Source: an uncultured Gemmatimonadota bacterium (GTDB lineage: Bacteria; 4572-55). Taken from it: a DNA stretch of 34,314 nucleotides. Made by a program: the position numbers and the translations under genes. The notes under the pieces were generated by a model. The model was not told the origin of the DNA, ran no database searches, and was given only the letters and a program-made list of their open reading frames with translations. Of this stretch, positions 3,668 through 34,314 are shown one piece after another (within the stretch, counting starts at the first letter, position 1; each line of letters starts with the position of its first letter). The stretch spans positions 1 to 34,314 of the forward strand of contig CAYOLL010000004.1 in NCBI GenBank assembly GCA_964404765.1, read 5' to 3'.

Positions 3668-4120
3668 TTATTTCGCTGTTTCCGGTCTAAGCATAGGCCC
3701 GTAGCCCAGGGGCAGACCGCCTAATTCCCGCACATCTTTAAGCGTGTAGCGCTCCGCCCAATCTTTAAAATGCTCCTTTAAGACCGCCCAAAAGCCATGT
3801 AACGGGCATGGCTCGTCCTGATTGCACAGTCCCCAGCCAAACATACAGACCGTAGAGTCTACTTCATAATCCACTGCGTTTAGAATATCAATAAAGCGTA
3901 TCTTGTCTAACGGTTGAGCAAAGGTAAATCCCCCGCCGTGACCTTTCTGCGACAATAAAATACCGCCCGTTACCAACCGCCGCATGATCTTAGACAAGTA
4001 GTGCGACGGAATTTCCGCAATTTTTGACAAATCTTGCGTACGATGCGATACATCGTCCGGTTGCGAGGCCATATAGGCTACTGCCCGCATTGCGTATTCA
4101 GCCGTTTGTGTCAACCGCAT
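3668..4120 (-). CDS. Rrf2-family transcriptional regulator (NsrR/IscR-like, probably Fe-S-binding)
   Basis: MRLTQTAEYAMRAVAYMA is the N-terminal wHTH typical of Rrf2. The three-Cys cluster CMFGWGLCNQDEPCPLH matches the [Fe-S] ligand region of NsrR/IscR. A strong GGAG RBS sits 8 nt before the ATG at 4120. The ORF-track start at 4150 is a TTG; the MRLT start is typical for the family. Confidence 0.85.
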   Translation of the reverse strand: MRLTQTAEYAMRAVAYMASQPDDVSHRTQDLSKIAEIPSHYLSKIMRRLVTGGILLSQKGHGGGFTFAQPLDKIRFIDILNAVDYEVDSTVCMFGWGLCNQDEPCPLHGFWAVLKEHFKDWAERYTLKDVRELGGLPLGYGPMLRPETAK

Positions 4121-4280
4121 ATTGACTCCTTCATTCATTGCCCTCTTCAATTTTCGGCTTGCAGCATGGTGTCACTTTGGACTCCGACATACCGGCATAA
4201 TGGCTTAACCGAAACCCACGTTTTTTGAAAAGCATTGGTATCTTCAATAAAAATATAAAATTTTTTTTAAAAGTCAACTT

Positions 4281-4348
4281 AATAGACTTGACAATCTATT
4301 AAAAATATATAATTTTGGATTTACAAGTCCATAGACATTGAAATCTAT
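4281..4348. promoter_or_regulatory. Two dyad-symmetric sites ATAGA-N8-TCTAT: AATAGACTTGACAATCTATT at 4281-4300 and ATAGACATTGAAATCTAT at 4331-4348. They overlap candidate -35 elements (TTGACA at 4288-4293, TTTACA at 4320-4325).
   Basis: Inverted repeats read in the AT-rich divergent region between the Rrf2 gene and the HCO-like gene. They are positioned as operators over a plus-strand promoter. Confidence 0.4.
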
Positions 4349-4371
4349 TGAAATTTGAAAGGACGGCGACC

Positions 4372-5778
4372 ATGCAAACTTCAACCAAACTGACCGAACA
4401 ATGGCTGCGAATTGCCATCGGTTCCCTGATTCTGGCCGGATTGCTTTCGCTCATTCTGGTGATTGGGCGGATGCCGTATCTTAGCCAATTTATCACCGAC
4501 CCGCAGTTTGCCAAAAAATGCCTGGTGATCCATGTGAACCTGGCCATTTTTGTCTGGTTGTTCTCGTGCCTGACCGCGCTGTTCAACCTGATTCCGGCGG
4601 GCAAGCCGCTTGAGTTCAAAACACACACCGCGCCGGTGGCGATGCTGGGTATCGGTTGCTTTGTGATCAGCGCCGCCTGGCCGGAGGCGATGCCCATCCT
4701 GTCCAACTATATTCCGGCCATTGATCATCCGCTGTTTTTTATCGGCATTGCCCTATTTTCGCTGGCCGTGGCGATCAATTTGGTCGACCGCCGTTTATTT
4801 AGCGGCAGTAACGCCGGACTCCCGACGCATAACGCTACCGCAGGACAGATGAGCCTGAGTCCAGTGACCGTGGACGGTTTGCGCGGGGCGGGTTTGGCCG
4901 GATTACTGGCTTTCGCGGTTATCTTGATTACGGCCTGGCGGATTGACGCTAATTATACGCCAACGATGTACTACGATCTCGTCTTTTGGGGCGGCGGTCA
5001 TGTTATGCAATTTGCCAATATCCTGGGTATGCTGTCGGTCTGGTTGATTTTGCTGGAAGCATCCACCGGCCTGACGCCGATCTCGCAAAAAGCGGCGCGG
5101 GGACTTTTTGGCTGGCTGCTATTGCCGCTACTCTTCACGCCATTTCTGGCCTGGCAGGTTAACACGCCTTTTTATCAGAAAAGTTTTACCCGTCTGATGC
5201 AATGGGGCATATTTCCCGCCGTGTCCATCTTCCTGATCATCTGTCTATATACTGTATATCGCGCCTATCGCACCGGAAGAATAAGCCGCAGCGCCTTCCG
5301 TCATCCGGCGTTCATGGGCTTTGCTGCCAGCGCTGGCCTGACCTTGGTAGGGTTTGGGCTGGGGGCGATGATTCACCGTGTGGATACGCTGATCCCAGCG
5401 CATTATCATGCGGCGATTGGGGCTGTCACTGTGGCTTATATGGCAGTCGCGTATCGGGTGTGGGCGGCGCTGGGTTATCGGATTCAATCGCAGCGGCTGA
5501 CGCAGGCGGCCGGCTGGCAACCGGCGCTGTTTGGCATCGGCCAGGCCGTATTTGCGGTCGGCTTTGGGTTAGCCAAAATGGCCCGCAAGGTATATGGCGA
5601 CGAGCAGATTATACAAACCGCCACGCAACACGCCGGCCTGGTGTTGATGGGAATTGGCGGTTTTATTGCAATTGCCGGTGGAATTACATTTATCTGGATT
5701 ATTGCCGGCCTTATCTATCGCTATGAGCCTGCGACTTCGCATTTTAATTCGGAACTGAAAGTTGTCGTTAAGTCTTAA
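4372..5778 (+). CDS. Heme-copper oxidase subunit I-like membrane protein, a divergent paralog lacking the helix-VII His-His CuB ligands
   Basis: A polytopic TM protein that aligns with the downstream subunit I. It has a helix-II His (LVIHVNLAIFVW), WGGGHVMQF (compare WWGLGHVSQQ), G..MIHRVDTLIPAHYHAAIGAVT (compare GTEQINIIAHNTLRIPGHFHATVVGGS) and GLAKMARKVYGD (compare GSYGVPRRHYDV). It has no HH motif. The ATG is at 4372, after a GGA RBS. Confidence 0.6.
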   Translation: MQTSTKLTEQWLRIAIGSLILAGLLSLILVIGRMPYLSQFITDPQFAKKCLVIHVNLAIFVWLFSCLTALFNLIPAGKPLEFKTHTAPVAMLGIGCFVISAAWPEAMPILSNYIPAIDHPLFFIGIALFSLAVAINLVDRRLFSGSNAGLPTHNATAGQMSLSPVTVDGLRGAGLAGLLAFAVILITAWRIDANYTPTMYYDLVFWGGGHVMQFANILGMLSVWLILLEASTGLTPISQKAARGLFGWLLLPLLFTPFLAWQVNTPFYQKSFTRLMQWGIFPAVSIFLIICLYTVYRAYRTGRISRSAFRHPAFMGFAASAGLTLVGFGLGAMIHRVDTLIPAHYHAAIGAVTVAYMAVAYRVWAALGYRIQSQRLTQAAGWQPALFGIGQAVFAVGFGLAKMARKVYGDEQIIQTATQHAGLVLMGIGGFIAIAGGITFIWIIAGLIYRYEPATSHFNSELKVVVKS

Positions 5779-5800: not shown

Positions 5801-5824
5801 GGAGTGCAAAATTTTAATTTTGCG
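5801..5824. promoter_or_regulatory. Palindromic motif GGAGTGCAAAATTTTAATTTTGCG (copy 1 of a repeated TGCAAAA-N-TTTTGCA element)
   Basis: An inverted repeat about 60 bp upstream of the small-TM gene start. Near-identical copies occur at 6643-6666, 8447-8473 and 8481-8506. Confidence 0.4.
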
Positions 5825-5882
5825 AAAATAAAGGATGTACGCGGAACTAAAATTTTCCTACTCCAAAAAAAAGGAGCGAACT

Positions 5883-6035
5883 ATGGATGAACGTGATGAA
5901 GAAAAAAATCCGCTGCATAAGCTGATGGATAATCCCTGGCTGTTGCTGGTGCTGGGATTAGTGGTGCCGATTTTGTCTTATACCGTCTGGGGTTTGATCG
6001 AGATTATGACAATGCCGCAGGCGCTTTTGCCATAA
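5883..6035 (+). CDS. Small single-TM protein (50 aa), candidate accessory subunit of the oxidase/NOR complex
   Basis: MDERDEEKNPLHKLMDNPWLLLVLGLVVPILSYTVWGLIEIM has one hydrophobic helix. A strong AAGGAG RBS precedes it. It sits between the subunit-I-like and subunit II genes. Confidence 0.5.
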   Translation: MDERDEEKNPLHKLMDNPWLLLVLGLVVPILSYTVWGLIEIMTMPQALLP

Positions 6036-6098: not shown

Positions 6099-6623
6099 AT
6101 GAGTATTTACTCACCCGCGTCGGGCTGGTTTAAGGCGCCCGAAGGCGCCGAACGGCTGTGGATTGGCATCGCTTTAATTTGGTGCTTGATTATGTTTATC
6201 GCCATGCCTTATTGGCATTTTAAAGGGAAACAGAACAGTACCGGCGAGTCATATCGTGTTGATCCGAAAGCGTTTAATGAACGCATCGAAAAATATGTTC
6301 AGACGAATAAAGTTGGCGAAGAATTGGGCATTCCGGTCGTGGAAGCCGCGCCCGGCGGTGATGTTTATCTGCTCGGACAAATGTGGCGCTGGTATCCGAT
6401 TCTGAAGCTAAAAAAAGATCAGACCTATCGACTGCACATCTCGTCCATTGACTTGCAGCATGGCTTTTCGCTGATGCCAATGAACATGAATTTTCAAGTG
6501 CTGCCGGGTTATGACCATGTTTTGACCATCACGCCAACATCAACCGGCATCTTTCCGATTATTTGTAACGAGTTTTGCGGTATCGGTCATCACATGATGA
6601 CTGGCCGGATTATTGTAGAATAA
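6099..6623 (+). CDS. Heme-copper oxidase/NOR subunit II with cupredoxin domain and a complete CuA site
   Basis: An N-terminal TM is followed by a cupredoxin domain. The CuA ligand pattern is H(QHGFS)...C-N-E-F-C-G-I-G-H-H-M-M, i.e. C-x-E-x-C-G-x2-H-x2-M. The 174-aa size resembles ba3-type subunit II. An AGGAGG RBS precedes it. Confidence 0.85.
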   Translation: MSIYSPASGWFKAPEGAERLWIGIALIWCLIMFIAMPYWHFKGKQNSTGESYRVDPKAFNERIEKYVQTNKVGEELGIPVVEAAPGGDVYLLGQMWRWYPILKLKKDQTYRLHISSIDLQHGFSLMPMNMNFQVLPGYDHVLTITPTSTGIFPIICNEFCGIGHHMMTGRIIVE

Positions 6624-6642: not shown

Positions 6643-6666
6643 GGAGTGCAAAAATTTATTTTTGCA
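6643..6666. promoter_or_regulatory. Palindromic motif GGAGTGCAAAAATTTATTTTTGCA (copy 2), preceded by ATTTTGCAAAT at 6628-6638
   Basis: A near-perfect inverted repeat about 57 bp upstream of the subunit I ATG, positioned like a class-II activator site. Confidence 0.4.
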
Positions 6667-6722
6667 GCCTTTGTTTAGCGAGATTAAAAATTTCGCACCC
6701 CGACAATTCATTAGGAGGAAAT

Positions 6723-8435
6723 ATGGGAAATTTTTTACCAAATCAAATGCGTACGTGTGATACGACGCGGCTACCCGTTTGTCTGACGGCGCAGCTATTT
6801 ATCCGCGCTCATGCCGTATTTGCCGTTGTCTATTTACTGGTGGGCGCGATTGCCGCGCTACTATTGGCCTTGACGCGCTGGTCGGCGGTCCATCTGCTGC
6901 CTGCCGATTGGTACTATCGCATTTTGACTTTACACGGTATCAACATGCTGATTTTTTGGATGCTATTTATGGAAGTAGCGATTCTCTATTTTGCCAGCAC
7001 AACGCTGCTTAACTCACGCACTTTTTCCAAACCAATGGGTTGGGTCGGTTTTGTGCTGATGGTTGTAGGCTCGCTCATGACCGATTGGATGATTTTAACC
7101 GGCAAGGGCGATGTATTAATGACCTCATACGTGCCGCTCAAAGCGGATCCGATGTTCTATCTGGGCATCATTTTGGTAGCCGTCGGTGTCTTGCTGGGCA
7201 TTGTTAATTTTTTTGGAACACTCTATATCGCTAAACGGGATCATACTTATACCGGTTCGGTGCCATTAGTCACTTTTGGCGCATTGGCCGCGGCCATTAT
7301 CGGCGTGCTGACCATTTTGCATGGCGCGGCCATCTTGATCCCGACAATGCTCTGGTCAATGGGTTTGATGCCGGTCCCGGACGCGGGCGTTTATCGTCTG
7401 ATCTGGTGGGGACTGGGCCATGTTTCGCAGCAAGTAAATGTCTGTGCGATGGTTTCCGTGTGGTACTTTCTGGCCACGCTGACTGTCGGCGCGCGCCCGC
7501 TAAACGAAACCGTCTGTCGCACGGCTTTTATTCTCTATATTTTATTCATCAACTTAGCTTCGGCGCATCATTTATTGGTCGATCCCGGTGTTGGAGCTAC
7601 CTGGAAAATATGGAACACTTCCTACGCTATGTACCTGGCTGTATTAGCCTCGCTGATTCACGGCTTCACCGTGCCGGCATCGGTCGAAGTGGCCCAGCGC
7701 ATGAAAGGCTACACTCGCGGCATGTTCCAATGGCTGACTTCCGCGCCGTGGGGCGATCCGGGCTTTTCCAGCTTCTTCCTGTCGCTGACAATTTTTGGTT
7801 TTATTGGTGGTATTACCGGAGTGACGCTGGGCACTGAGCAAATTAATATCATTGCTCACAATACGTTGCGTATTCCCGGTCACTTCCATGCCACAGTGGT
7901 CGGCGGCTCAACGCTGGCTTTTATGGGTTTAGCCTACTATGTGGTTCCGCTGATTTTTCAGCGTGAGTTTTATTTAAAGGGCGTTGCTCGGGTGCAGCCG
8001 TACATTTTTGCCGCCGGTATTGTTATGCTGTCATTCGGGATGTCCTTTGCCGGTTCATACGGTGTGCCGCGCCGCCATTATGATGTTGATTTTACCGGGG
8101 CGAATATTCCGGCCGGTTTCGACTCTGCCGCACACTTTATGTTAGGGATTGTCGGTATTGGTGGAACTCTGGCTTTCATTGGGGCATTGATTTTTGTTCT
8201 GCTGGTGGTGGCGGCTGTCTTTTTTGGTAAATCCAATGTCGGTCAGCCCATGTCCGCCTGGCAATCTGCGGATAATCTGAAAATGAACGCCAACGTGCTG
8301 TCCCGGCCAATTGATGAGGCCATTGCGCATAAAGTTCCGGGTACTGTCACTTTAACGCTTGTCTTATTGGTATCTTTTGTGGTATACTATTTTGCTAACT
8401 GGAAAGCGTTGGCAGATGTCTGGTTTGTGCGGTAA
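6723..8435 (+). CDS. Heme-copper oxidase superfamily subunit I (B-family-like; putative NO reductase catalytic subunit)
   Basis: It has 12 or more TM helices with a helix-II His (LHGINMLIFWMLFMEVA), the helix-VI CuB His in WWGLGHVSQQVNV, the helix-VII HH in ASAHHLLVDPG, and the helix-X heme ligands in GHFHATVVGG. The 570-aa size is close to ba3 subunit I. Gln replaces the Tyr of the GHPxVY motif. An AGGAGG RBS precedes it. Confidence 0.9.
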   Translation: MGNFLPNQMRTCDTTRLPVCLTAQLFIRAHAVFAVVYLLVGAIAALLLALTRWSAVHLLPADWYYRILTLHGINMLIFWMLFMEVAILYFASTTLLNSRTFSKPMGWVGFVLMVVGSLMTDWMILTGKGDVLMTSYVPLKADPMFYLGIILVAVGVLLGIVNFFGTLYIAKRDHTYTGSVPLVTFGALAAAIIGVLTILHGAAILIPTMLWSMGLMPVPDAGVYRLIWWGLGHVSQQVNVCAMVSVWYFLATLTVGARPLNETVCRTAFILYILFINLASAHHLLVDPGVGATWKIWNTSYAMYLAVLASLIHGFTVPASVEVAQRMKGYTRGMFQWLTSAPWGDPGFSSFFLSLTIFGFIGGITGVTLGTEQINIIAHNTLRIPGHFHATVVGGSTLAFMGLAYYVVPLIFQREFYLKGVARVQPYIFAAGIVMLSFGMSFAGSYGVPRRHYDVDFTGANIPAGFDSAAHFMLGIVGIGGTLAFIGALIFVLLVVAAVFFGKSNVGQPMSAWQSADNLKMNANVLSRPIDEAIAHKVPGTVTLTLVLLVSFVVYYFANWKALADVWFVR

Positions 8436-8446
8436 ACTTCTAACAT

Positions 8447-8506
8447 GGAGTGCAAAAATAGATTTTTGCAGTGGGAAAAAAGTGCAAAATTAAAATTTTG
8501 CACTCC
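8447..8506. promoter_or_regulatory. Two adjacent copies of the palindromic motif: GGAGTGCAAAAATAGATTTTTGCAGTG at 8447-8473 and AGTGCAAAATTAAAATTTTGCACTCC at 8481-8506 (a perfect 26-bp palindrome)
   Basis: Inverted repeats read directly, 37 to 95 bp upstream of the HiPIP ATG at 8543. Confidence 0.4.
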
Positions 8507-8542
8507 GATACTTTAACCAATTTTAAATGGAGCGAACCAATC

Positions 8543-8893
8543 ATGGAAAACATGATTACCCGGAAAGAGTTTTTGAAAAAACTTGGCCTGATCGGCGTGG
8601 CCGCTTTTGGCGGCAGCACGCTATTAACGGCTTGCAGTAAAGGCGGCGAGCAAAGCGGGGGCGGCGCAGCGGCGGATCCTTGCGCGGATATCAGCGGCTT
8701 GAGCGATGCCGATAAGCAGACCCGCACCCAATTTCAATACGCTACAACGTCCGCCGATCCCAACAAGACCTGTGACAAATGCGCTTTGTGGCAAGGCGTA
8801 ACCGGCAGCGGCCCGTGCGGCGCCTGCCAGGTTGTCAAAGGCCCGATCGCCGTTTTAGGCACTTGCACGGCGTTTGCGGCCAAGCCGGCGTAA
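8543..8893 (+). CDS. High-potential iron-sulfur protein (HiPIP), lipoprotein-anchored
   Basis: The signal peptide has a lipobox (GSTLLTAC). The mature domain, TQFQYATTSADPNKTCDKCALWQG....GPCGACQVVKGPIAVLGTCTAF, matches the HiPIP four-Cys pattern C-x2-C...C...G-x-C with conserved aromatics. Confidence 0.7.
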   Translation: MENMITRKEFLKKLGLIGVAAFGGSTLLTACSKGGEQSGGGAAADPCADISGLSDADKQTRTQFQYATTSADPNKTCDKCALWQGVTGSGPCGACQVVKGPIAVLGTCTAFAAKPA

Positions 8894-8904
8894 TGTTATT
8901 TTTG

Positions 8905-8956
8905 AACCGGATCAACCCAAAGGATTTTGCGAGCCTTTTGGGTTGATCTTACCGGT
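8905..8956 (+). other. Long imperfect hairpin: AACCGGATCAACCCAAAGG-loop-CCTTTTGGGTTGATCTTACCGGTT (about 19-bp stem) between the HiPIP and sco genes. No adjacent U-tract.
   Basis: Read directly. The loop contains ATTTTGCGA, which resembles the TTTTGCA half-site. Confidence 0.35.
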
Positions 8957-9044
8957 TCTGTGAATTCGAGACTCGGTCAAAATTTTTTAATCAGTTTAGT
9001 GATAAATGGATATATTTTTCCTTTATCTGCAAAGCGAGGCTCCT

Positions 9045-9992
9045 ATGAAAATCATCGAAAATATACAGCAATTCCTGATTGGCTGGCGCTTTCCGGTGAT
9101 GATGGTGTCCATGCTGCTTTTTTTCAGCCTGGAGTTATTTATTGTCCTGTTGATTCCGGCTTCGAGCGGGGCGGCGGCACAGTTTGCCGAAGATTTTAAA
9201 ACCTGGTGTTTTGGCTATGACCCGGCTACGGGTAAACTGGAATGGGGTTATGTGATTATGTTTCTGATTCAGCCCTTGATGATGTGTGGCGTAATCATCA
9301 TGGTTTGGATCAAGCCGCTCAAGGAAGTCTGGCAAGATCGTCCGACTCAGACGGTGCCGTATCTGGTCAGTTCGGCTACGATTGTGCTGGCCCTGGGTGT
9401 AAGCCTGACGCTGATGGTTGGCGCGGATGCCCGCGCTGCCGATGAGCAATTGCCTTTTCCGGCTGAGGCGCTGCGCACGGAACTAAACCCGATCCCATTT
9501 TCGCTGATGAATCAGGATAGCGCCGTTGTGAGCCTGGAATCGTTAAAAGGCCGGGTGACGCTGATTACGGCAGTTTACGCCCGCTGTGGCTATACGTGCC
9601 CGATGATTTTGGCGCAAACGCGTCGGGTGATGAGCTCCCTGACGCCACAGGAATTGAAAGAGCTTTCGATTCTGGGCATCACGCTCGATCCGGAGCATGA
9701 CGATGTCGCCGTGCTGCGGGAAATGGCCGCCGGTCAACAAGTCAAGACGCCGCTGTTCCATTTTCTAACCGGCGAATCAGCCTATGTTAACCAAACCCTT
9801 GATATGTATGGTTTTGCCCGCAAGCGCAATCCGGAAACCGGGGTGATCGACCACGCCAATCTTTTTTTATTAATTGATCGGCAGGGCAAAATCGCTTATC
9901 GCTTTTCGATTGGCAAACGGCAGGAAGATTGGCTGGTTCACGCCATACGCATGTTGATTAAAGAAAAAAAGGGTTCGGGTGTCGCGGCATGA
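9045..9992 (+). CDS. SCO1/SenC-family copper chaperone with an N-terminal polytopic membrane extension
   Basis: The C-terminal thioredoxin-like domain carries YARCGYTCP (the CxxxC copper site) and a downstream DHANLFLLIDRQG (conserved His). The N-terminal 140 aa contains 3 to 4 hydrophobic helices. A GAGG RBS precedes it. Confidence 0.8.
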   Translation: MKIIENIQQFLIGWRFPVMMVSMLLFFSLELFIVLLIPASSGAAAQFAEDFKTWCFGYDPATGKLEWGYVIMFLIQPLMMCGVIIMVWIKPLKEVWQDRPTQTVPYLVSSATIVLALGVSLTLMVGADARAADEQLPFPAEALRTELNPIPFSLMNQDSAVVSLESLKGRVTLITAVYARCGYTCPMILAQTRRVMSSLTPQELKELSILGITLDPEHDDVAVLREMAAGQQVKTPLFHFLTGESAYVNQTLDMYGFARKRNPETGVIDHANLFLLIDRQGKIAYRFSIGKRQEDWLVHAIRMLIKEKKGSGVAA

Positions 9993-10053
9993 CCTGAAAA
10001 ACTCGTGACAGGCCACAAAGGCACGAAAACACTAAGTTTCACGAAGTTTGTTA

Positions 10054-12207
10054 ATGTTTTATGTCTTCAGCGCTTATGTTTGTGAACAATTCACCCGGAA
10101 AATTATGCGCCCACGCCCCATCATTACCCATGAGGATATACCACAACTAAATGCAACGCATGTGCGTGATGCCCGGTCCGAACCACCGGTGCGTGGCGAA
10201 GCTCTGCTGACCCAATTAGATATGCAGTTTACCCGGCTAAACCGATGGGTTAAGGCTGTCGTCCCTGATGCACTTAATCCGTTTACGCAGATGGGCGCCG
10301 TGGCGGATACGATGTTTATCGTTGCCATTATTAGTGGTATCTTGCTGTTGTTTTGGTATAAGGCCAGCGTGTTTCAGGCCTATGATTCGTTAGAAGCGAT
10401 GCGGCATAATTGGCCGGCGCAGTTAGTGCGCTCAATCCATCGTTATAGTTCGGACGGTTGTTTGCTCTTTGTCATTTTACATGCATTGCAAATTCTGGGA
10501 GCACGCAAGTTTGGCGGTGTGCGCTGGCTGGCCTGGGTTTCCGGTGTGGCGCTGGTCTGGCTGTTATGGGTAGATGGCTGGACGGGTTATTGGCTGGTTT
10601 GGGACGTGTCGGCGCAGCAAGTAGCGCTTGGCACCGCGAAATGGTTAGATGTGCTGCCGATTTTTGCCGACCCTTTATCACGTTCTTTTTTAACTGACGA
10701 CAGCGTCAATTCGTTATTCTTTTTTGTGGTGTTTTTTATCCACATGCTGCTGCCGCTGGTCATGGGTGTGGCGTTGTGGATTCACATTATGCGCTTAAAT
10801 GATTCGCATTTTCTGACCAATCGCAAGTTGACCGGCATTTTGCTTACGGCGCTGGTAATGGTTTCGCTTCTCTTTCCGGCTCTATCGGCTGAACAAGCGG
10901 CCATGCAAATCGCGCCACAATCTTTCAAGATGGATTGGTTTTATTTATTACCGCTGATTGTGACGGATCGTTTACATGGCGGTGGTTTGTGGTTAGTTAC
11001 CGTCATTTTTACGGTTGCTTTTTTTAGTGTGCCGTGGGCTATGGCCCGACAACGATCCGCGCCGGCAAAGGTCAATCCGGAACGCTGTCACGGCTGCACA
11101 CAGTGTTTTCAGGATTGTCCATTTAACGCGATTACGATGCGCCCGCGTGATGGTAAGCATCCGGTTGTATCCTATATTGATCCGGATAAGTGCGTGGGCT
11201 GCGGCGTGTGCGTCGGCTCGTGCGATCCCTGGGCAATTGAGTTTGATGCCCTGCGGCAGATGGATGTGCGCAAATGGATTCGTCAGCGGCTCAAGATCGA
11301 AACTGCTGATCCGCGTCACGTTGCTTTTGTTTGCGCCGATTCTGCCGGGGCGGATTTACAACTGAATGCCGCCGGGGAGTGCGCTGAATTGACTGGCTAT
11401 CGAATCGTGCCTGTGCCGTGTGTAAGCTGGCTGTTTGCGCCCATGATCGCGCAAGTATTGCGGGCCGGTGTGCCGGGGGTGATGGTTGTGGGTTGCGGAC
11501 CAAACGAAATTTGTCGTAAAGGCAACCGTTGGACGGCCGAACGTCTGGCTGGAACCCGCGAGCCTTATTTACTGATGACACCTTCTGCGGCCGCAGATCA
11601 TGATGAAAGTGATCTGGTTGGGCGGATTCGATATATACGCTACGATCGATCGCAGAAGGCGGAATTTATTGCCGACGCGCAGGATTTTCGGGCCGGAAAA
11701 GTGACTGCGCCAAAAGTGTCCGCCCGGCGTTGGGCAAACGTGGTGGTTATTTTTCTTATCTTAGCTGGGGCGATCATTACATTGAGTCGCATGCCCTATC
11801 GTCCGCCACAGTTGGAAACCGCGGAATTAGTGATCTCTTTCAAACATCCGGGGCAGTTGGTCGAGCAGGTTACGGCTTCCGCTGCCGATCAACAAAATAT
11901 ATTGCCGCACATGCGTGGCGGCGCCTCTAAAAAGAGGTTACGTACGGCGGTTCGTTTGCAGGTATTCGTCGATGGCGCAGAAAAAGTCAATCAAACACTG
12001 GCTCCACGCGGTCTATTTAGCGATGGCGCTAGCATTGCCATTGAAAAAATACCGCTATTGGAAGGTCGCCATCTGGTTAAAGTGCGAGTAGGCGATTCGG
12101 CTAATCCGGATGAATGGCAATTTTCTGATTCGCGCGAGCTGGATTTTAAAATAGCAACGCGACGTGTAGTTTTGTTCAGCAAATCGGCGGGATTTAAATG
12201 GTATTGA
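10054..12207 (+). CDS. Multi-domain membrane electron-transfer protein: di-heme cytochrome b (N-terminal), 2x[4Fe-4S] ferredoxin, an MvhD/FlpD-like domain, a TM helix and a C-terminal about 150-aa domain
   Basis: Two H-x13-H pairs in TM helices ([16 protein letters not shown] and [16 protein letters not shown]) match the cytochrome b heme bL/bH ligands, alongside an R..H..A...F motif. [12 protein letters not shown] and [12 protein letters not shown] are two 4Fe-4S motifs. [10 protein letters not shown] ... [37 protein letters not shown] resembles the methyl-viologen-reducing hydrogenase delta subunit domain. The start is uncertain: the ATG at 10054 and the ATG at 10105 both lack a clear SD, and the TTG at 10048 is also possible. 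Confidence 0.7.
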
Positions 12208-12359
12208 TCAAATAGATTTGCACAAGTTTCAAATTTTAGCGCACTTGCGTGCTAATAATGGACATGTAAGTCTATTATTATATTTTGTTTGCTACTTTAA
12301 TTCACAACGCGAGTTTGTGAGCTCGCACAATATCAATCTAAGGGAAGGAGTACGGGTTA

Positions 12360-13846
12360 TGGGAACAAAAAAGGGGTTGTTTTTCGGAACAGCGATGGTG
12401 ATTTTGACGCTTTCGTTATCGCTTATTTACTCATGTAATGAGCAGCAATCGGCACAATCAAAGTCAAGTGGGAGTAGCAGTAAAGCAGACAATGGGCTCG
12501 TTAAGTTGGAGCCGGTGGCCGTACAAGGCGAGGAAGTGGCAGTCTTAACCGATCCACCGATGGTGCCGCCACCGATTACGCGCACCAATGCGACAAAAGT
12601 GATTGTCAATCTGGAGGTTATTGAAAAAACAATGCGGATTGCCGACGGAGTGATGTATACTTTTTGGACATTCGGCGGGACGGTGCCTGGCAAGTTTATC
12701 CGCGTGCGTGAAGGCGATTTTGTAGAGTTTCACCTGAAAAATCATCCGGAAAATAAGTTGCCGCATAATATTGACTTACATGCGGTTACGGGACCTGGCG
12801 GCGGCGCAGCCTCCTCATTTACTGCCCCGGGGCACGAGTCGGTCTTTTCGTTTACGGCGATGAACCGCGGCTTGTATGTCTATCACTGCGCGACGGCGCC
12901 GGTAGGTATGCATGTGGCCAACGGCATGTATGGCTTGATCTATGTTCAGCCAAAGGAAGGCTTGCCGCCGGTTGACAAAGAATACTATGTTTTCCAAAGC
13001 GATTTTTACACCAAAGGCGCGTATGGCGCAGCCGGTCTGCAACCCTTCAGCATGGAGAAAGCTTTGCAGGAACTGCCGGATTATGTGGTTTTTAACGGCT
13101 CCGTCGGTTCGACAACCGGCGATAAGGCGATGACCGCCAAAGTCGGCGATAAAGTGCGCCTTTTTGTTGGCAATGGCGGCCCGAATATGGTCTCTTCCTT
13201 CCACGTTATTGGCGAAATTTTTGATAATGTTTATGAAGAAGGCGGCGATCGGGTTAATCATAACGTGCAGACAACAATGGTTCCGGCGGGCGGCTCGACG
13301 ATCACCGAATTTGTGTGTGAAGTGCCGGGCACGTTTATCCTGGTTGACCATTCCATTTTCCGGGCGTTTAACAAAGGCGCTATCGCGATGCTAAAAGTCG
13401 AAGGCGCTGAAAATAAAACGATCTACTCCGGTAAGCAGGATGATCGTATCTATCAAGGTGAAGGTTCTGCGGTGCAGGAAATGCCGGGGGGAGCTGTTGT
13501 CGAAGCGCCCGCAGCCAAGACCAAAGAGGAGCGTATGGAGCGCGGACAAAATGTGTATAAATCCATTTGCATTGCCTGCCATCAGGCCGAAGGTCAGGGT
13601 ATGCCGGGCGCATTCCCGCCATTGGCCGGTTCGGACTTCCTGAATGCTGACAAGAACCGCGCCATCAAGACGGTAATGAACGGCTTGGAAGGTAAGGTGA
13701 CGGTTAACGGCGCGGATTACAACGGCATCATGCCCAAGCTGAACCTGACAGATGAAGATATTGCCAATGTTGTTACCTATGTGCTGAATAGCTGGGGCAA
13801 TAGCGGCGGCGAGATTACGCGAGATGATGTGAAGAAACTGCGGTAG
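12360..13846 (+). CDS. nirK: Copper-containing nitrite reductase (NirK) with C-terminal mono-heme cytochrome c domain, lipoprotein
   Basis: The lipobox is LSLSLIYSC. The type-1/type-2 Cu ligand motifs are [13 protein letters not shown] and [18 protein letters not shown]. The two-cupredoxin length fits NirK. The C-terminal [19 protein letters not shown] is a CxxCH heme c site. A GGAAGGAG RBS precedes it. The ORF-track start at 12218 is a TTG far upstream. Confidence 0.9.
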
Positions 13847-21405: not shown

Positions 21406-23394
21406 TTAACGCAACAACACAGTTCGCGCAGTCATCAAGCCGGCGTTTGTTTGCAAGCTCCAAAAATAAATACCATTAGCCAGTTGACGATTATCCTGTG
21501 ACTGTCCATTCCAGGACAGATTATGCTCGCCGGGTGAAAGCAGTTCTTGGTCAAGAATCGTGCGCACCATGCGACCGGCGCTGTCATAAATCCGCACGGT
21601 TGCCGTTGAAGCCGCCGGCAAGTAAAAAGCCAGCGTGGTTTGATCGGAAAACGGATTCGGATGGCTTGCTTGCAAACTCGGGCGGGCGGCCGCATTTTCA
21701 ACAAATACATCGTGCTCGGGTGATTGCCAATTGCGTCCATCGGCAAAGAGCGCTTCTATAAAATAGCGATAGGCAAAGCCGGATGACGGGTGATCTTCAT
21801 ACATGACGGTTGTTGGCGCTAAAATCGGTGATATGCCAGAATAATCTGCCGCGGGACCAATGCCTTGCCGATGAACACGAATGCCGGTAATATGGGTCAA
21901 ATCCGACAACTGCCAGGCAAGCTTGACGCCCGGACCATTCATCTGCGCCTGAAAAGAGAGCAATGTTAAAGCGGCTACGCGCTGATAGTTTATCGCCGCC
22001 ACGACATCAATGATACCCCAGCCGAGCAGCGTATCCGGGTGGGTGGCCTGGCTGGCGGTCATCATCAGCGCTTCGCGGATTTGCATCATCGTCCAATCGG
22101 GATGGGCTTGCAAAAGCTGGGCGGCGCAGCCGGCCACTAACGGCGACGACAAAGACGTTCCGCTAAGATTATAATAGCCAATTGCACTGCGGGCGCGGGC
22201 GCAGCGCGTACTAACGCCACGAGCCATAACCTCCGGTTTAAGCCGGCCGTCGGCGGTTACCCCGTCAGAGTTGAAACTCGCCCTGGCGCCGGTTGCATCG
22301 ACCGCTCCAACGGTTAAGATGCTGTCGGCATCGGCCGGCGCGCCCAGAAACGGGTGGGTCGGGTCGCCGCCGCTATTACCCAGCGAGACGCAGATGACGA
22401 CGCCAAGACCGGCGGCAATATCGGCGGCGCGGGTGATCGGCGCAGTATCGCCGTCCATTTGCGCATAAGTATACCAGTCCAGGTAGCTCAACGAGCTATT
22501 GGCCACATCTGTGCCCAGGCCTTCCGCCCATTCAATGGCCGCAATCCAGTAATCTTCTTCAACCGGTGTTTCGTTGGGTAAGTCCTCGGTTTTGGCCAGA
22601 ATGAAGTGGGCTTTATAGGCCGGACCGATGAGCTTTCCGTCGGCATAACCACCCAAAGTTGACCAGGTCGCCGTGCCATGATCGTGTTGACCGCTCACAT
22701 CGTTGGCCTCATTTTGCACATTGCCGTCATTGAAAATAAAATCATGCTGCGCCAGTAAACGCCCTTCGCTGAGAATGGCGGCAAAGGATTCGTGGGTCAG
22801 ATTGTAGCCCGTATCAAGCATCGTAACAATCACCCCAGCGCCGTTATAACCAAGCCGATGGGCATTGACGGCATTGATCTGATTCAGTTGGTCAAATGAC
22901 AGGCCGTAGTTTAAATCTGCCGGCGTGGCCATGACTTCAGCAGGTGTTTCCACTAATTCCGGCCGTTTGAAGCCCAATACCGGCTGAATGCGGCTGACAA
23001 AGGGCAGAGCGGCGATTTGAGCCAATTGCTCCCGGGTTGTTACCAGGCTGATGGCATTTAACCACTTACTGGTTTGGACTATCCTTGCGCCGGTTCCAGC
23101 CAACCGTGCCGAATAATCCGCCGCCACCGGCAGGTCAAGCTGCGAAACACCCGGCTTTTGACCGCGTTTATGCCGTCGTTCAATCGCGCGATCAGTCAGA
23201 CCTAATTCGGCTAACGACATTGTGGCAGCGCTCGCTTGGGCATTTTCTGTGCTCTTGTCCGTTAAAAAAACCCAGACTTTCAGCTCTGACTGACCCGTCA
23301 GACGTTCATAAACCCGGCTGTCGATTTTTGACGCCATGCCGGATGAAACCCAGCCCAGAATGGCAATAAGAACGGCTGCTACTGTAATTCGCAT
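21406..23394 (-). CDS. Subtilisin-family (S8) serine peptidase with C-terminal T9SS sorting domain
   Basis: It has a signal peptide. The catalytic triad motifs are VIVTMLDTGYN (Asp), HDHGTATWS (His) and LSGTSLSSPLVAGCAA (Ser). The C-terminal NPFSDQTTLAFYLP...VRIYDSAGRMVRTI...WNGQ..ANGIYFWSL... is a T9SS type-A sorting domain. Confidence 0.85.
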   Translation of the reverse strand: MRITVAAVLIAILGWVSSGMASKIDSRVYERLTGQSELKVWVFLTDKSTENAQASAATMSLAELGLTDRAIERRHKRGQKPGVSQLDLPVAADYSARLAGTGARIVQTSKWLNAISLVTTREQLAQIAALPFVSRIQPVLGFKRPELVETPAEVMATPADLNYGLSFDQLNQINAVNAHRLGYNGAGVIVTMLDTGYNLTHESFAAILSEGRLLAQHDFIFNDGNVQNEANDVSGQHDHGTATWSTLGGYADGKLIGPAYKAHFILAKTEDLPNETPVEEDYWIAAIEWAEGLGTDVANSSLSYLDWYTYAQMDGDTAPITRAADIAAGLGVVICVSLGNSGGDPTHPFLGAPADADSILTVGAVDATGARASFNSDGVTADGRLKPEVMARGVSTRCARARSAIGYYNLSGTSLSSPLVAGCAAQLLQAHPDWTMMQIREALMMTASQATHPDTLLGWGIIDVVAAINYQRVAALTLLSFQAQMNGPGVKLAWQLSDLTHITGIRVHRQGIGPAADYSGISPILAPTTVMYEDHPSSGFAYRYFIEALFADGRNWQSPEHDVFVENAAARPSLQASHPNPFSDQTTLAFYLPAASTATVRIYDSAGRMVRTILDQELLSPGEHNLSWNGQSQDNRQLANGIYFWSLQTNAGLMTARTVLLR

Positions 23395-27330: not shown

Positions 27331-27987
27331 TTATGACAAAACATCTTCTACTTTGATTGAAAATCCTTCCAACAATTTCGATGGCACTGCCGGCTTGCCT
27401 GGACCGACCTGGCTTGCAAACAACTCATAAGCGCCGTCGGTCAGTGCATAAACTTCTATCGCCTGCCAAGCCGGATCGATAATCCAATATTCCTTGACGC
27501 CGAATTTCTGATACAAAGCCATCTTCGTGTTGCGATCTCGCTGGATGGATGACGGGGAAATAATTTCGACGATCAAATCCGGCGCACCGACAATGCCGTG
27601 CGGGGCAATAATCGAACGATTGGCTTCGGCGATAAACACAATGTCCGGCTGGATCGTGTTTTCGTCGGATAAGATTACGTCAATGGGCGCGTGAAACACT
27701 TGTCCCGATTTATTCATCCGCACTAATTGGGCGAGACGCAATAATACATTTAACGAGGCGTTTTGATGATCCGTTGATGGCGCAGACATAGCAATTAACT
27801 CCCCATTTATGATTTCATAACGCTTGTCATCCGGCAGGGTCAAATAGTCGGTGTACGTCCATCTTTTGGTGGGGACGAACGGCTTTGCCGGCGCAACAAC
27901 CGCAGGCTTATTGAGATATGGCGCGGGCGCTTTCTTTTTCCGTGCTTTTGCCGTCGGGGAAACGGCGGCTTGTTCCAAAATTGCCAT
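27331..27987 (-). CDS. Uma2-family (DUF820) putative PD-(D/E)xK endonuclease with Lys/Pro/Ala-rich N-terminal tail (copy A)
   Basis: YEIINGELIAMSAPSTDHQ...HAPIDVILSDENTIQPDIVFIAEAN...GAPDLIVEIISPSS...KMALYQKFGVKEYWIIDP...IEVYAL matches the Uma2 family. The N-terminal AKARKKKAPAPYLNKPAVVAPAKPFVPTKR tail is unusual. A GGAGG RBS precedes it. Confidence 0.8.
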   Translation of the reverse strand: MAILEQAAVSPTAKARKKKAPAPYLNKPAVVAPAKPFVPTKRWTYTDYLTLPDDKRYEIINGELIAMSAPSTDHQNASLNVLLRLAQLVRMNKSGQVFHAPIDVILSDENTIQPDIVFIAEANRSIIAPHGIVGAPDLIVEIISPSSIQRDRNTKMALYQKFGVKEYWIIDPAWQAIEVYALTDGAYELFASQVGPGKPAVPSKLLEGFSIKVEDVLS

Positions 27988-27996
27988 AACAACCTC

Positions 27997-28656
27997 CTAC
28001 ACCGTCAGAACATCTTCTACTTTGACTGAGAAACCGTCCAACAACTTCGACGGCACTGCCGGCTTGCCGGCACCGATCGCGCTTGCAAATAATGTATAAA
28101 CGCCGTCTGTCAACGCATAAATCTCGACGACCTGCCAGGCCGGATCGATGATCCAGTATTCCTTGACGCCAAATTTTTCGTACAAAGCCATTTTCGTGCG
28201 GTGATCGCGTTGAATCGATGATGGGGAAATAATTTCGACGATCAAATCCGGCGCGCCGACAATGCCATGCGGGGCAATAATCGACCGATTGGCCTCGGCA
28301 ATAAACACAATGTCCGGCTGCACGGTATTTTCGTCAGACAAAATTACGTCAGTTGGCGCGAGAAAACTTTCTCCGACAGGCTGATTCGCTAAATACTTAT
28401 CCATTACGCGGTGTAACTTTCCCAGACACCGTTGATGATCCGTTGATGGCGCAGCCATAGTCATTAACTCCCCGTTTATAATTTCATAACGCTTGTCATC
28501 CGGCAAAGTCAAATAGTCGGTATACGTCCATCTTTTGGTGGGGACGAACGGCTTTACCGGCGCAACAACCGCAGGCTTATTGAGATATGGCGCGGGCGCT
28601 TTCTTTTTCCGTGCTTTTGCCGTCGGGGAAACGGCGGCTTGTTCCAAAATTGCCAT
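27997..28656 (-). CDS. Uma2-family (DUF820) putative endonuclease with the same basic N-terminal tail (copy B, tandem paralog)
   Basis: It is nearly identical to copy A at the N and C termini (first 32 aa identical) and divergent in the central region (HQRCLGKLHRVMDKYLANQPVGESF versus HQNASLNVLLRLAQLVRMNKSGQVF). Its GGAGG RBS is identical. The two form a roughly 660-bp tandem duplication. Confidence 0.8.
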   Translation of the reverse strand: MAILEQAAVSPTAKARKKKAPAPYLNKPAVVAPVKPFVPTKRWTYTDYLTLPDDKRYEIINGELMTMAAPSTDHQRCLGKLHRVMDKYLANQPVGESFLAPTDVILSDENTVQPDIVFIAEANRSIIAPHGIVGAPDLIVEIISPSSIQRDHRTKMALYEKFGVKEYWIIDPAWQVVEIYALTDGVYTLFASAIGAGKPAVPSKLLDGFSVKVEDVLTV

Positions 28657-32275: not shown

Positions 32276-33610
32276 TTAGCGCATCAATACCATACGTCGG
32301 GTTTCGATAGGTTTGCCATTAACCGACATTGCGTAGAAGTAGATGCCGCTGCCGGTTGGATCGCCCGCGTCATCCCGACCGTCCCAGGTTAGGCTATGCC
32401 GACCTTCCGCCAATGAATTGTCAACCAACGTGCGAATCCATTGACCGGCGGCATTATAAATGCGGATAACAACTTTTTGCGATTTTGGTAATGTCCAGGA
32501 AATGTTCGTCGATTGGGTAAAAGGGTTGGGATAGTTTTGGGTCAGTCGGGATGGCGAAGCCTGATTTTCCGGATCATCGGTTTCAATATTCAGCGGGTCG
32601 GCATAACGGAAGATGCGCCCGTTTTTGCAGCCAATCCAGAGCTGATCCGGGCCAAACACGGCAAAACCGGTCGCTTCCGCCGGCACAGTAAAGCGGCTTT
32701 GCCACGAGCGGCCCAAATCGCCGCTGAAATAAAATACAGTGCTGCCGTCAGTGACATGATACGCCCAACCGTTCCGGGCATTGTGAAATTGCCAGGAGCC
32801 GGGCAGAATAGCCGTGTCTGAAGTAATTTGAGTGGTGTCCCACGAAGCGCCGCCGTCTTGCGTTGTCAACAGCCAGATATTCGCTGCGCGTAAGAGGCCG
32901 GTTTGCTCGTCAAAAATATGGGCGTATTGGAAGGGTTCGAGCAATTTGTCAAGAAAATAACTGGCCATGAAAGTGATCCCCTTTGAGCTCCAAAGCCTAT
33001 CATTATTAAAGCGTGGGTCATTCGCATCCCAATATCGCTCGATTAACCAAATTAAATCCGGGGAACTGAAATCCCAGAAAGGAACATTCAAACCGGTATC
33101 AATGCCCCAATGATCTAAACCAAGCGAATAGTTCCAAGTTTTTCCTCCATCTCGTGTTTGGAGCAGGAACTCTATGCCACCGGGTTGACCGCCGCCGGCT
33201 CGTCCAATGCCAAACCAGCCGTTTTGCGCATCAAAAAATCGCGGCGGTTCTGCAAGATATTCTGTATAAACCTGGCTTGTATCCAGCAGATAGGAAGCAG
33301 TAGTCCAGGTTAAACCGTGGTCGGATGTGTAATTAAAGTAAACATTTGGACGGACATAATGCCAGATCCAGGCTTCGCTATCGGAAATTGCGTCAAAATC
33401 TCCTATCGCCAACGGCATCCAAGAAATGCCGGAATCGACGGTGTGATAGGTCTGATCGCTGCAAATCCAAACCGTTTGGGTCGAAAAGCCCTCAATTTTG
33501 GCAATATGGGCGGTGGTCGGCGATTGGATTTCCACCAGCGTGGGAACAGCCAATAAACAGGCCGGAAATTGGACAAACAGGCTGATGACAAGCATAAGCA
33601 AATTCTTCAT
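32276..33610 (-). CDS. Secreted BNR/Asp-box repeat protein with C-terminal T9SS sorting domain
   Basis: The signal peptide MKNLLMLVISLFVQFPACLLA is followed by four S/T-x-D-x-G-x-T/S-W Asp-box-like motifs (SDHGLTW, TRDGGKTW, TQDGGASW, SGDLGRSW). The C-terminal YPNPFTQSTNISW...VVIRIYNAAGQWIRTL...WDGRDDAGDPTGSGIYFYAM is a T9SS sorting domain. The ORF-track ATG at 33724 would overlap the upstream gene and lacks a signal peptide. Confidence 0.75.
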   Translation of the reverse strand: MKNLLMLVISLFVQFPACLLAVPTLVEIQSPTTAHIAKIEGFSTQTVWICSDQTYHTVDSGISWMPLAIGDFDAISDSEAWIWHYVRPNVYFNYTSDHGLTWTTASYLLDTSQVYTEYLAEPPRFFDAQNGWFGIGRAGGGQPGGIEFLLQTRDGGKTWNYSLGLDHWGIDTGLNVPFWDFSSPDLIWLIERYWDANDPRFNNDRLWSSKGITFMASYFLDKLLEPFQYAHIFDEQTGLLRAANIWLLTTQDGGASWDTTQITSDTAILPGSWQFHNARNGWAYHVTDGSTVFYFSGDLGRSWQSRFTVPAEATGFAVFGPDQLWIGCKNGRIFRYADPLNIETDDPENQASPSRLTQNYPNPFTQSTNISWTLPKSQKVVIRIYNAAGQWIRTLVDNSLAEGRHSLTWDGRDDAGDPTGSGIYFYAMSVNGKPIETRRMVLMR

Positions 33611-33677
33611 AAAAGCTCTTTCACTCCAAGATAGACCGACAAATATTCTATTCCTCCAAAACTCCACCACTCCGGCC

Positions 33678-34314
33678 CTAAAAACCATAAGCTTTGCGTC
33701 TTGCAACTCCCGCCGAAAAGCCATGTCCGCGCAACGTCATTTTGGGCAGTTTATCGGCTAATTCACGGTACGCGGCGCGGCTGACGGCGCGGCGTTCGCG
33801 GGTCAGGGTATGCCAGATGCCGGCTTCGTTACTCCAGGCTTGCGGCCACAGCGGCGTCGGATCGGGTTTGGGCGGCTGACGGCGCGGGGTGTAACGGCGC
33901 TGCTTCAGCGTCGTGGCCATTTCGCGGAAAATGCCGGGCCCGTAATGGTCATACCACAACAGCGTGTGGGCGGTGGACAGCGCGCCGGCCCAGGGATACC
34001 AGTGCAGCCACCAGCGGTCGCTCAGGCGGCCAAGTTCGTCGTCGATTCGGTCCCGCTCGCGGTCGGTTTTGGCCGGGCGTTGCTCGGTGTAAAATAAGCC
34101 GCTTTGGAAATCGTCACCGGCCACATGCCACGTTTCGCCGATGCCGTATTTTTCCGGGTGAAGGGCCACATCCGCACCGTGAGTCAGGCCGAATTGCCCG
34201 CAGATGAATAAGGCGATATGTTGATGATAATCGTGCAGAAATTGAATCGTGGCGCGCGCTTCTGCACAAGTTTCAGTCGGGAAGTCGGTAAAGCACATGG
34301 CTTCCACGGCAATG
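33678..34314 (-). CDS. Hypothetical protein, N-terminally truncated by the window edge (the listed start at 34307 is a GTG and the frame is open to the edge)
   Basis: A long minus-strand ORF with no recognised motifs: ...FLHDYHQHIALFICGQFGLTHGADVALHPEKYGIGETWHVAGDD... Confidence 0.45.
   Translation of the reverse strand, partial: IAVEAMCFTDFPTETCAEARATIQFLHDYHQHIALFICGQFGLTHGADVALHPEKYGIGETWHVAGDDFQSGLFYTEQRPAKTDRERDRIDDELGRLSDRWWLHWYPWAGALSTAHTLLWYDHYGPGIFREMATTLKQRRYTPRRQPPKPDPTPLWPQAWSNEAGIWHTLTRERRAVSRAAYRELADKLPKMTLRGHGFSAGVARRKAYGF

Follow-up and report, generated by a model that had tools for sequence, protein, structure and literature searches.

The window analysed here comprises 34,314 nucleotides (positions 1 to 34,314, forward strand) of contig CAYOLL010000004.1, from an uncultured Gemmatimonadota bacterium (assembly GCA_964404765.1). 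It contains a gene cluster built around a heme-copper oxidase (HCO) of the nitric oxide reductase (NOR) type, here treated as an eNOR. Starting 107 nt past the stop codon of the gene for the catalytic subunit I lies a short gene for a HiPIP (high-potential iron-sulfur protein), a small periplasmic electron carrier. The initial annotation, made from the letters of the DNA alone, had noticed this gene directly after the catalytic subunit, as is indeed the case, and had proposed that its product is a lipid-anchored HiPIP and the dedicated electron donor of the enzyme next to it. The HiPIP is an ordinary one, of the subfamily typified by Rhodothermus marinus, and a single lineage has recruited it to the eNOR cluster, at an operon boundary. 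Being confined to that lineage, the pairing makes the protein a plausible local donor but no general feature of the enzyme.

The HiPIP Gene and Its Product

The open reading frame (ORF) at 8543-8893 is a real gene. Its sole close relative, P0002, is found on a 1.4-kb metagenome contig (L001) and is 66% identical in global alignment and 61% by BLASTP. Nucleotide differences between the two are distributed 34/22/57 over the three codon positions, with most at the third, and 34 aligned codons differ by synonymous changes only. An extension of the ORF to a GTG start at 8471 would cross the upstream palindromes described below and has no support from the homologues. The precursor is laid out as MENMITRKEFLKKLGLIGVAAFGGSTLLTAC, then SKGGEQSGGGAAADP, then C...AKPA. 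The GC content at third codon positions is 0.67, compared with 0.52-0.63 in the neighbouring genes; base composition was considered as a sign of recent transfer and set aside, as this contrast is too weak for a gene of 351 nt.

A word-indexed search with the single protein returned only the protein itself and one relative, whereas 654 relatives at E<=1e-3 emerged when 1.8 billion cluster representatives were searched exhaustively. Among solved structures the best match is 3h31_A (phmmer, residues 46-114, E 3.8e-13), followed by three classical HiPIPs, 1hlq, 1isu and 1eyt. The similarity to classical HiPIPs is only weak in sequence (E 1e-3 to 0.6). The structure 3h31 is that of the R. marinus HiPIP (Stelter et al. 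2010, as cited in PMC5439954). The Pfam family HIPIP (PF01355) gives 18.2 bits (E 0.0032), under its gathering cut-off of 22. This sub-threshold score is offset by the phmmer match to a solved HiPIP and by the homologues found by profile search, most of which carry PF01355 and some of which are named high-potential iron-sulfur protein at their source; the Pfam model under-represents the R. marinus-type subfamily. In an AlphaFold2 model built with 89 homologues, the HiPIP domain has predicted local distance difference test (pLDDT) values of 89-96. A Foldseek search of the PDB with this model again places 3h31 first, with a target-normalised TM-score of 0.84 and an rmsd of 1.6 Å, and the next 15 matches are all HiPIPs.

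Which residues define the protein? The initial annotation had relied on a pattern of four cysteines and aromatic residues. That pattern is correct: the cluster ligands C77, C80, C95 and C108 are kept in 148-149 of 149 aligned relatives, position 83 is W, Y or F and position 111 is F or W throughout. It is also incomplete, because six cysteines are conserved. The extra pair, C47 (147 of the 149) and C92 (all 149), is present in 3h31, has no counterpart in classical HiPIPs and probably forms a disulfide. R61, Y66 and G100 are invariant, and Y66 is presumably the counterpart of Tyr19 in Chromatium HiPIP. Position 107, usually Y or W, is Thr here, as in 24 of the relatives. Together with the six cysteines, the protein has the two motifs of the R. 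marinus subfamily, C-x-D-x-S-G-L and C-G-x-C-x-V-K-G-P-I. By homology and predicted fold it is a [4Fe-4S] HiPIP of that subfamily, for which a [4Fe-4S]3+/2+ couple at positive potential is predicted. The earlier identification is thereby upheld: the best homology is to HiPIPs and not to other Cys-rich lipoproteins, and the cysteines are conserved.

The resemblance to R. marinus HiPIP extends to ~42-46% identity over the 70-residue domain, the same six cysteines and the same predicted fold. In contrast to that protein, the window HiPIP has RK in place of RR in its signal, Thr in place of Tyr or Trp before the last ligand cysteine, and a shorter linker. With the HiPIPs of purple bacteria (Allochromatium, Rhodoferax, Rhodocyclus; 1hip, 1hlq, 1isu) it shares the four-cysteine pattern, the conserved tyrosine and a small fold lined with aromatic residues. 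The classical purple-bacterial proteins also reach the periplasm via the twin-arginine translocation (Tat) system. However, they have no lipobox, linker or extra cysteine pair, and their partners are photosynthetic reaction centres and the bc1 complex.

Export and Lipidation

The N-terminus of the precursor suggests how the protein reaches its site of action. A Tat-like motif is followed by a hydrophobic stretch, LGLIGVAAFGGSTL, and by L-T-A-C31, which fits the lipobox pattern [LVI][ASTVI][GAS]C. The lipobox seen in the initial annotation is thus present at residues 28-31, and lipidation of Cys31 is predicted. C31 is invariant in both homologue alignments used here (A2 and A4). No Pfam or TIGR Tat-signal model matches the HiPIP precursor. 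The cofactor of HiPIPs is inserted in the cytoplasm, and for this reason Tat export remains likely; the window protein would be exported in folded form by Tat and lipidated at Cys31.

Lipobox and Tat-like signal are a trait of the whole family and no special adaptation of this locus. Among 253 family members, the signal has RR in 177 and RK in 53, a lipobox cysteine stands ahead of the domain in 217, and RR or RK is combined with the lipobox in 201. About a fifth of R. marinus-type HiPIPs use RK and not RR. Two family members that are 86% identical to mature R. marinus HiPIP (P0295 and P0297) have RR and LLSAC, and share with the window protein the precursor layout of Tat motif, lipobox and linker. 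Linker length and sequence differ across the family. R. marinus-type HiPIPs as a group are predicted to be Tat-exported lipoproteins. The HiPIP of R. marinus is membrane-associated, and this property would be explained by such a nature.

The Neighbouring eNOR

What kind of enzyme stands next to the HiPIP gene? In subunit I, Gln237 lies four residues after the CuB ligand His233 and takes the place of the cross-link tyrosine, as judged by alignment to 7deg_A, a B-family oxidase of solved structure. Q237 is invariant in 24 relatives, and so is N239, two residues on. Q is diagnostic of eNOR and N of sNOR (Table A4 of PMC8756737, modified from Hemp and Gennis). The closest named relatives of subunit I come from Rhodothermales, Balneolaceae and Fodinibius. 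Such relatives agree with the abundance reported for eNOR in hypersaline settings and with its characterisation in R. marinus (PMC11214002). The enzyme is treated here as an eNOR on account of its signature residue and its relatedness, with sNOR formally possible given N239. A specific sNOR reading, modelled on the SCO-containing cluster norSY-senC-orf1, was considered and dropped, because the residue aligned with the tyrosine is the Gln of the eNOR signature.

The window enzyme and the R. marinus eNOR (PMC11214002) have in common the Gln at the tyrosine position, a subunit II with CuA and a heme-O-synthase-like gene close to the HCO genes. They differ in that a carrier gene is present in the window, and none has been described for eNOR clusters. 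The CuA site of the window's subunit II is complete, and the enzyme consequently needs a periplasmic one-electron donor.

Relatives of subunit I with 46-50% identity are encoded in similar clusters on plasmids of Defluviimonas, Thermus and Thermomicrobium; these loci yielded no family name for the enzyme. On the Thermus thermophilus plasmid pTthSNM6-6b (L083), HCO subunits I and II with 46% identity are accompanied by an Rrf2 gene, a cytochrome c, a cytochrome P460 and a multicopper oxidase domain protein that is possibly a NirK-type nitrite reductase. The related enzyme is surrounded there by a different set of accessory genes.

The Conserved Cluster

To place the HiPIP gene in context, the window was compared with 80 related eNOR loci, one per species, taken with up to 10 kb on each side where the contig allowed. 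The usual gene order is a 476-aa paralogue of subunit I, a small membrane ORF, subunit II, subunit I, SCO/SenC and a cytochrome b fusion, after which a UbiA-type prenyltransferase gene or nirK often follows. SCO stands directly after subunit I in the relatives. The cytochrome b fusion follows SCO in all 75 of the 80 loci whose contig is long enough. The coordinates of the window's features are given in Table 1.

Table 1. Features of the HiPIP gene and the surrounding eNOR cluster in the window.
Feature	Position	Strand	Basis or remark
Rrf2-family regulator gene, divergent from the cluster	3668..4150	-	Same position in ~30 of 80 loci
Third palindrome copy, 2 mismatches, before small ORF 5835-6035	5804..5825	+	Window scan
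HCO subunit II, CuA ligands complete (H...CNEFCGIGHHM)	6099..6623	+	Alignment to ba3 subunit II
Fourth palindrome copy, 1 mismatch, between subunits II and I	6646..6667	+	Window scan
HCO subunit I, eNOR-type	6723..8435	+	Pfam COX1, 218 bits; Q237 signature
Palindrome pair GTGCAAAA-N6-TTTTGCAC	8447..8506 (copies 8450-8471, 8482-8503)	+	60-nt inverted repeat between subunit I stop and HiPIP start
HiPIP precursor gene	8543..8893	+	116 codons and TAA; ORF, homologues, fold, substitution pattern
Tat-like motif T-R-K-E-F-L-K, residues 6-12	8558..8578	+	Read from sequence; RK for twin arginine
Lipobox L-T-A-C, residues 28-31; Cys31 predicted lipidated mature N-terminus	8624..8635	+	Sequence
Gly/Ser/Ala-rich flexible linker, residues 32-45	8636..8677	+	pLDDT <50 for residues 32-42
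HiPIP domain, residues 46-116	8678..8890	+	Alignments to 3h31/1hlq/1isu, conservation, pLDDT
Extra conserved cysteine pair	C47 8681-8683, C92 8816-8818	+	Column conservation
Cluster ligands	C77 8771-8773, C80 8780-8782, C95 8825-8827, C108 8864-8866	+	3h31/1hlq/1isu alignments
Stem-loop after HiPIP stop codon, no T-run	8904..8958	+	z -2.6; missed by terminator scan
SCO1/SenC copper chaperone, N-terminal membrane extension	9045..9992	+	Pfam; synteny
Cytochrome b fusion: di-heme cytochrome b, two [4Fe-4S] ferredoxin motifs, FlpD/MvhD-like domain	10048..12207	+	Pfam
NirK copper nitrite reductase fused to class I cytochrome c	12218..13846	+	TIGR02376, 356 bits; Cytochrom_C

The cytochrome b fusion is a protein of 719 aa, of bc-type, with two His pairs 14 residues apart, an extra membrane helix and a Cys-free C-terminal domain. 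To our knowledge, a cytochrome b/[4Fe-4S]/FlpD fusion has not been characterised as a companion of eNOR; it is possibly the electron-input module of the enzyme. The extension of SCO/SenC comprises ~140 residues and contains a motif conserved across relatives, FAEDFKxWCFGYDPATG.

The protein that heads the cluster (4348-5778, + strand) is a 476-aa membrane protein that most related loci also encode. BLASTP (E 4e-17; 25% identity over ~450 residues) identifies it as a divergent paralogue of subunit I. Of the CuB ligands, the first histidine (GGGH) is retained, as is the H-x-H in helix X (PAHYH); the HH pair is missing, and the protein would therefore be unable to bind a normal CuB. Directly 5' of subunit II is a 66-aa ORF with a single helix (5835-6035, +), conserved in almost every related locus; its product may be an additional small subunit, which we take to be comparable to subunit IIa of ba3 oxidase. 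Elsewhere in the window, on the minus strand, are tandem genes for Uma2-family endonucleases (27331-27987 and 27997-28656) and two genes for secreted proteins with type IX secretion sorting domains (21406-23394 and 32276-33724). These sorting domains, like the closest relatives, point to a host of the FCB group (Bacteroidota/Rhodothermota-like).

Palindromes and Hairpins

The initial annotation had assigned two copies of a palindromic operator to the HiPIP gene. Two copies of a palindrome do precede the gene, but they lie upstream of the coding sequence and not within it. Matches to GTGCAAAA-N6-TTTTGCAC with <=3 mismatches number four in the 34 kb, against ~0.5 expected, and four were reached in one of 100 shuffles. 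All four are in intergenic DNA of the eNOR cluster. As RNA, the pair before the HiPIP gene would fold into one 60-nt hairpin (-26.7 kcal/mol, z -3.8), and the region has no match in Rfam. To call it an operator was to assume a function: no relative conserves the palindrome, it is not the motif linked to Rrf2, and the pair can fold as an RNA hairpin.

Scans for sigma-70 promoters and for terminators found no convincing promoter 5' and no canonical terminator 3' of the HiPIP gene, although the consensus used may not suit this host. The stem-loop after the stop codon has an equivalent in L001, where a hairpin of different sequence is found at the same place. The HiPIP gene, flanked by palindromes on its upstream side and by a hairpin on its downstream side, has the look of a self-contained unit.

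Where the Rrf2 gene and the cluster diverge, the intervening DNA contains a tandem pair of a second palindrome, ATAGAC-N6-NTCTAT (4282-4299 and 4331-4348). It is found at the same place in six relatives (L002, L020, L034, L036, L047 and L049), with copies 33 bp apart in five of them and a single copy in L002. As a site for Rrf2, this motif is a better candidate operator than is the TGCAAAA palindrome near the HiPIP gene.

Does the HiPIP Serve eNOR?

Electron transfer from a HiPIP to an HCO is already known, and the window protein joins a known family. R. marinus HiPIP carries electrons from alternative complex III (ACIII) to the caa3 HCO, with a potential of ~+250 mV quoted for the ACIII acceptor (PMC5928083). 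Donation to the R. marinus caa3 oxidase goes back to Pereira 1999, as cited in PMC11214002 and PMC11730185. The statement in the initial annotation that HiPIPs are donors to caa3-type oxidases is thus documented for this species. The acceptor proposed in the window is different, namely an NO reductase. Small periplasmic one-electron carriers are also encoded in denitrification clusters, beside the reductases that they presumably serve, as with the cytochrome c551 NirM beside nirS (PMC8756737). Those carriers are c-type cytochromes or cupredoxins whose linkage is conserved across many genomes, whereas the window has an iron-sulfur protein as carrier, in a linkage confined to one lineage. The R. 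marinus eNOR was assayed with ascorbate and N,N,N',N'-tetramethyl-p-phenylenediamine only (bioRxiv 10.1101/2021.10.15.464467), and in the PNAS paper on eNOR (PMC11214002) HiPIP appears only among the references. No HiPIP gene-linked to a NOR-type HCO turned up in the literature searched, where 16 papers contain both terms, HiPIP and nitric oxide reductase, but never pair them in a title or abstract.

How would the HiPIP work as a donor? The precursor would be loaded with its cluster in the cytoplasm, and the folded protein would be exported by Tat via the RK variant of the twin-arginine motif. After cleavage of the signal and acylation of Cys31, the 70-residue redox domain would be tethered by a flexible linker of ~15 residues at the periplasmic face of a membrane. 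Single electrons would pass from a quinol-oxidising complex to the HiPIP and from there to CuA of eNOR subunit II, and each N2O formed would take two such deliveries of one electron. A further acceptor may be NirK, through its cytochrome c domain. A potential like that quoted for the R. marinus ACIII acceptor would suit CuA. At the level of the DNA, the gene was inserted as a small unit of its own between the unit of small ORF, subunit II and subunit I and the unit of SCO and cytochrome b/FeS genes.

Such a role is suggested by the position of the gene, by the recurrence of the arrangement in an independent metagenome contig (L001) and by the rare palindrome, which the HiPIP gene has in common with promoter-proximal DNA of the eNOR structural genes. 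That the HiPIP is a denitrification-linked carrier to the eNOR CuA in this organism, and not a universal partner of eNOR, is a reading to which we give an even chance. The narrower proposal, that the lipid-anchored HiPIP of this lineage is the physiological and co-regulated donor to CuA, in a HiPIP:NO oxidoreductase pairing, is tentative and somewhat improbable. Both the co-regulation and the acceptor are putative.

A number of observations weigh against a donor role of this kind. With an HMM of the HiPIP domain run on all six-frame ORFs, none of the 80 related eNOR loci (within ~10 kb) contains a HiPIP, and only L001, the positive control, was matched; relaxing the search to E<=50 with filters off added only noise (best E 0.75). 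SCO also comes straight after subunit I in the two metagenomic loci whose full-length subunit I is closest to that of the window (78% identity), and the few apparent gaps between subunit I and SCO in relatives contain no ORF for a small redox protein. Conversely, homologues of the window's HCO subunits I and II, SCO, NirK or cytochrome b fusion are absent from all 28 metagenomic HiPIP loci obtained in a scan built on five close sequences. The annotated neighbours at four further HiPIP loci are unrelated: radical SAM enzymes, a P-type ATPase, a two-component system or an efflux system. The order of subunit I and HiPIP is repeated only in L001. The adjacency in two related contigs could reflect a neutral insertion at an operon boundary. 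In the signal peptide, the strict Tat consensus S/T-R-R-x-F-L-K is broken by Lys at the second Arg, and the residue at +2 of the mature protein, Ser, does not settle from the sequence which membrane anchors it. As for shared control, the palindrome is absent from the relatives, L001 and the two loci of 78% identity among them; hits with <=3 mismatches are scattered and never stand at an equivalent position, and the motif that travels with the Rrf2 gene is a different one.

Co-occurrence of HiPIP with this HCO type, which the initial annotation had proposed as a check, is therefore negative at the level of the locus, and the only other case of co-localisation is L001. Thus, eNOR clusters normally encode no carrier, and R. 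marinus-type HiPIP genes are normally solitary, unlike the window gene inside its eNOR cluster. The HiPIP gene is part of an insertion of ~610 bp (8436-9044) that is lineage-specific and common to L001 only. In L119 (8722-8795), a close relative, the 72-nt spacer between subunit I and SCO contains a canonical Rho-independent terminator, so that the transcription unit of the eNOR structural genes is separate there from that of the SCO/cytochrome b genes; the window HiPIP gene is placed at exactly this boundary. Other eNOR clusters encode no soluble carrier, their class I cytochrome c domains being found solely in fusions to NirK (8 of 80). The donor would therefore normally be encoded elsewhere, and this makes the insertion in the window informative.

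The same facts can be read without any link to NO. The protein may be a general respiratory HiPIP that connects ACIII or a bc-type complex with any terminal oxidase, the gene having landed here by chance. The solitary genes and unrelated neighbourhoods of its family members, the 80 eNOR loci without HiPIP, the terminator at the insertion point in L119 and the service of R. marinus HiPIP in an aerobic chain (PMC5928083) all agree with this. However, the same arrangement persists in a second contig despite divergence of the HiPIP to 66% identity, and two palindromes stand before the HiPIP gene that otherwise occur only before eNOR genes; we regard a chance landing as unlikely, though a serious contender. 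The weight of the palindromes depends in turn on their nature. They may be an RNA hairpin for processing, stabilisation or attenuation, or a short dispersed repeat, and would therefore be uninformative on co-regulation. This agrees with the fold of the two copies into a single hairpin, with the copy between subunits II and I, within the presumed operon, with the finding that no exact copy exists in 81 related loci, and with the conservation of another sequence beside Rrf2. Yet the form of the palindrome, 7+7 around an AT-rich spacer of 6 nt, is typical of a dimeric repressor site, all four copies lie just 5' of start codons and Rfam offers no RNA family, which leaves an origin as RNA element or repeat doubtful.

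Other partners within the cluster are also conceivable. Denitrification enzymes commonly share small carriers, and the HiPIP could serve NirK-cytochrome c or the whole denitrification chain, with eNOR not its specific acceptor. NirK with its fused cytochrome c is encoded 3.3 kb downstream on the same strand, and NirK is linked to eNOR clusters in ~10 of the 80 loci. Against this, the HiPIP gene adjoins subunit I and not nirK, there is no palindrome copy upstream of nirK, and the relatives that carry NirK have no HiPIP; the proposal is improbable. The HiPIP might instead be a periplasmic partner of the cytochrome b/[4Fe-4S]/FlpD fusion, or take up electrons from an external donor such as Fe(II) in the manner of Iro; in both cases it would form a private input to eNOR. 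The fusion is an invariant companion of eNOR in the 75 complete loci, and eNOR is present in nitrate-reducing Fe(II) oxidisers (PMC11214002). In all other lineages, however, the fusion has no linked HiPIP, the window contains no genes for Fe(II) oxidation and this reading is purely inferential; we consider it very improbable.

Implications

eNOR is among the commonest NO reductases in environmental data, and its native electron donor is not named in the literature searched. R. marinus, the source of the only characterised eNOR, also makes a HiPIP of exactly the subfamily found in the window. The locus is a pointer to a testable donor for eNOR and not evidence of a conserved system; if the pairing is non-functional, the locus is one more HiPIP gene. 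If transfer from HiPIP to eNOR does take place in this lineage, a HiPIP encoded elsewhere in the genome would be a candidate for the native eNOR donor in Rhodothermus and related bacteria.

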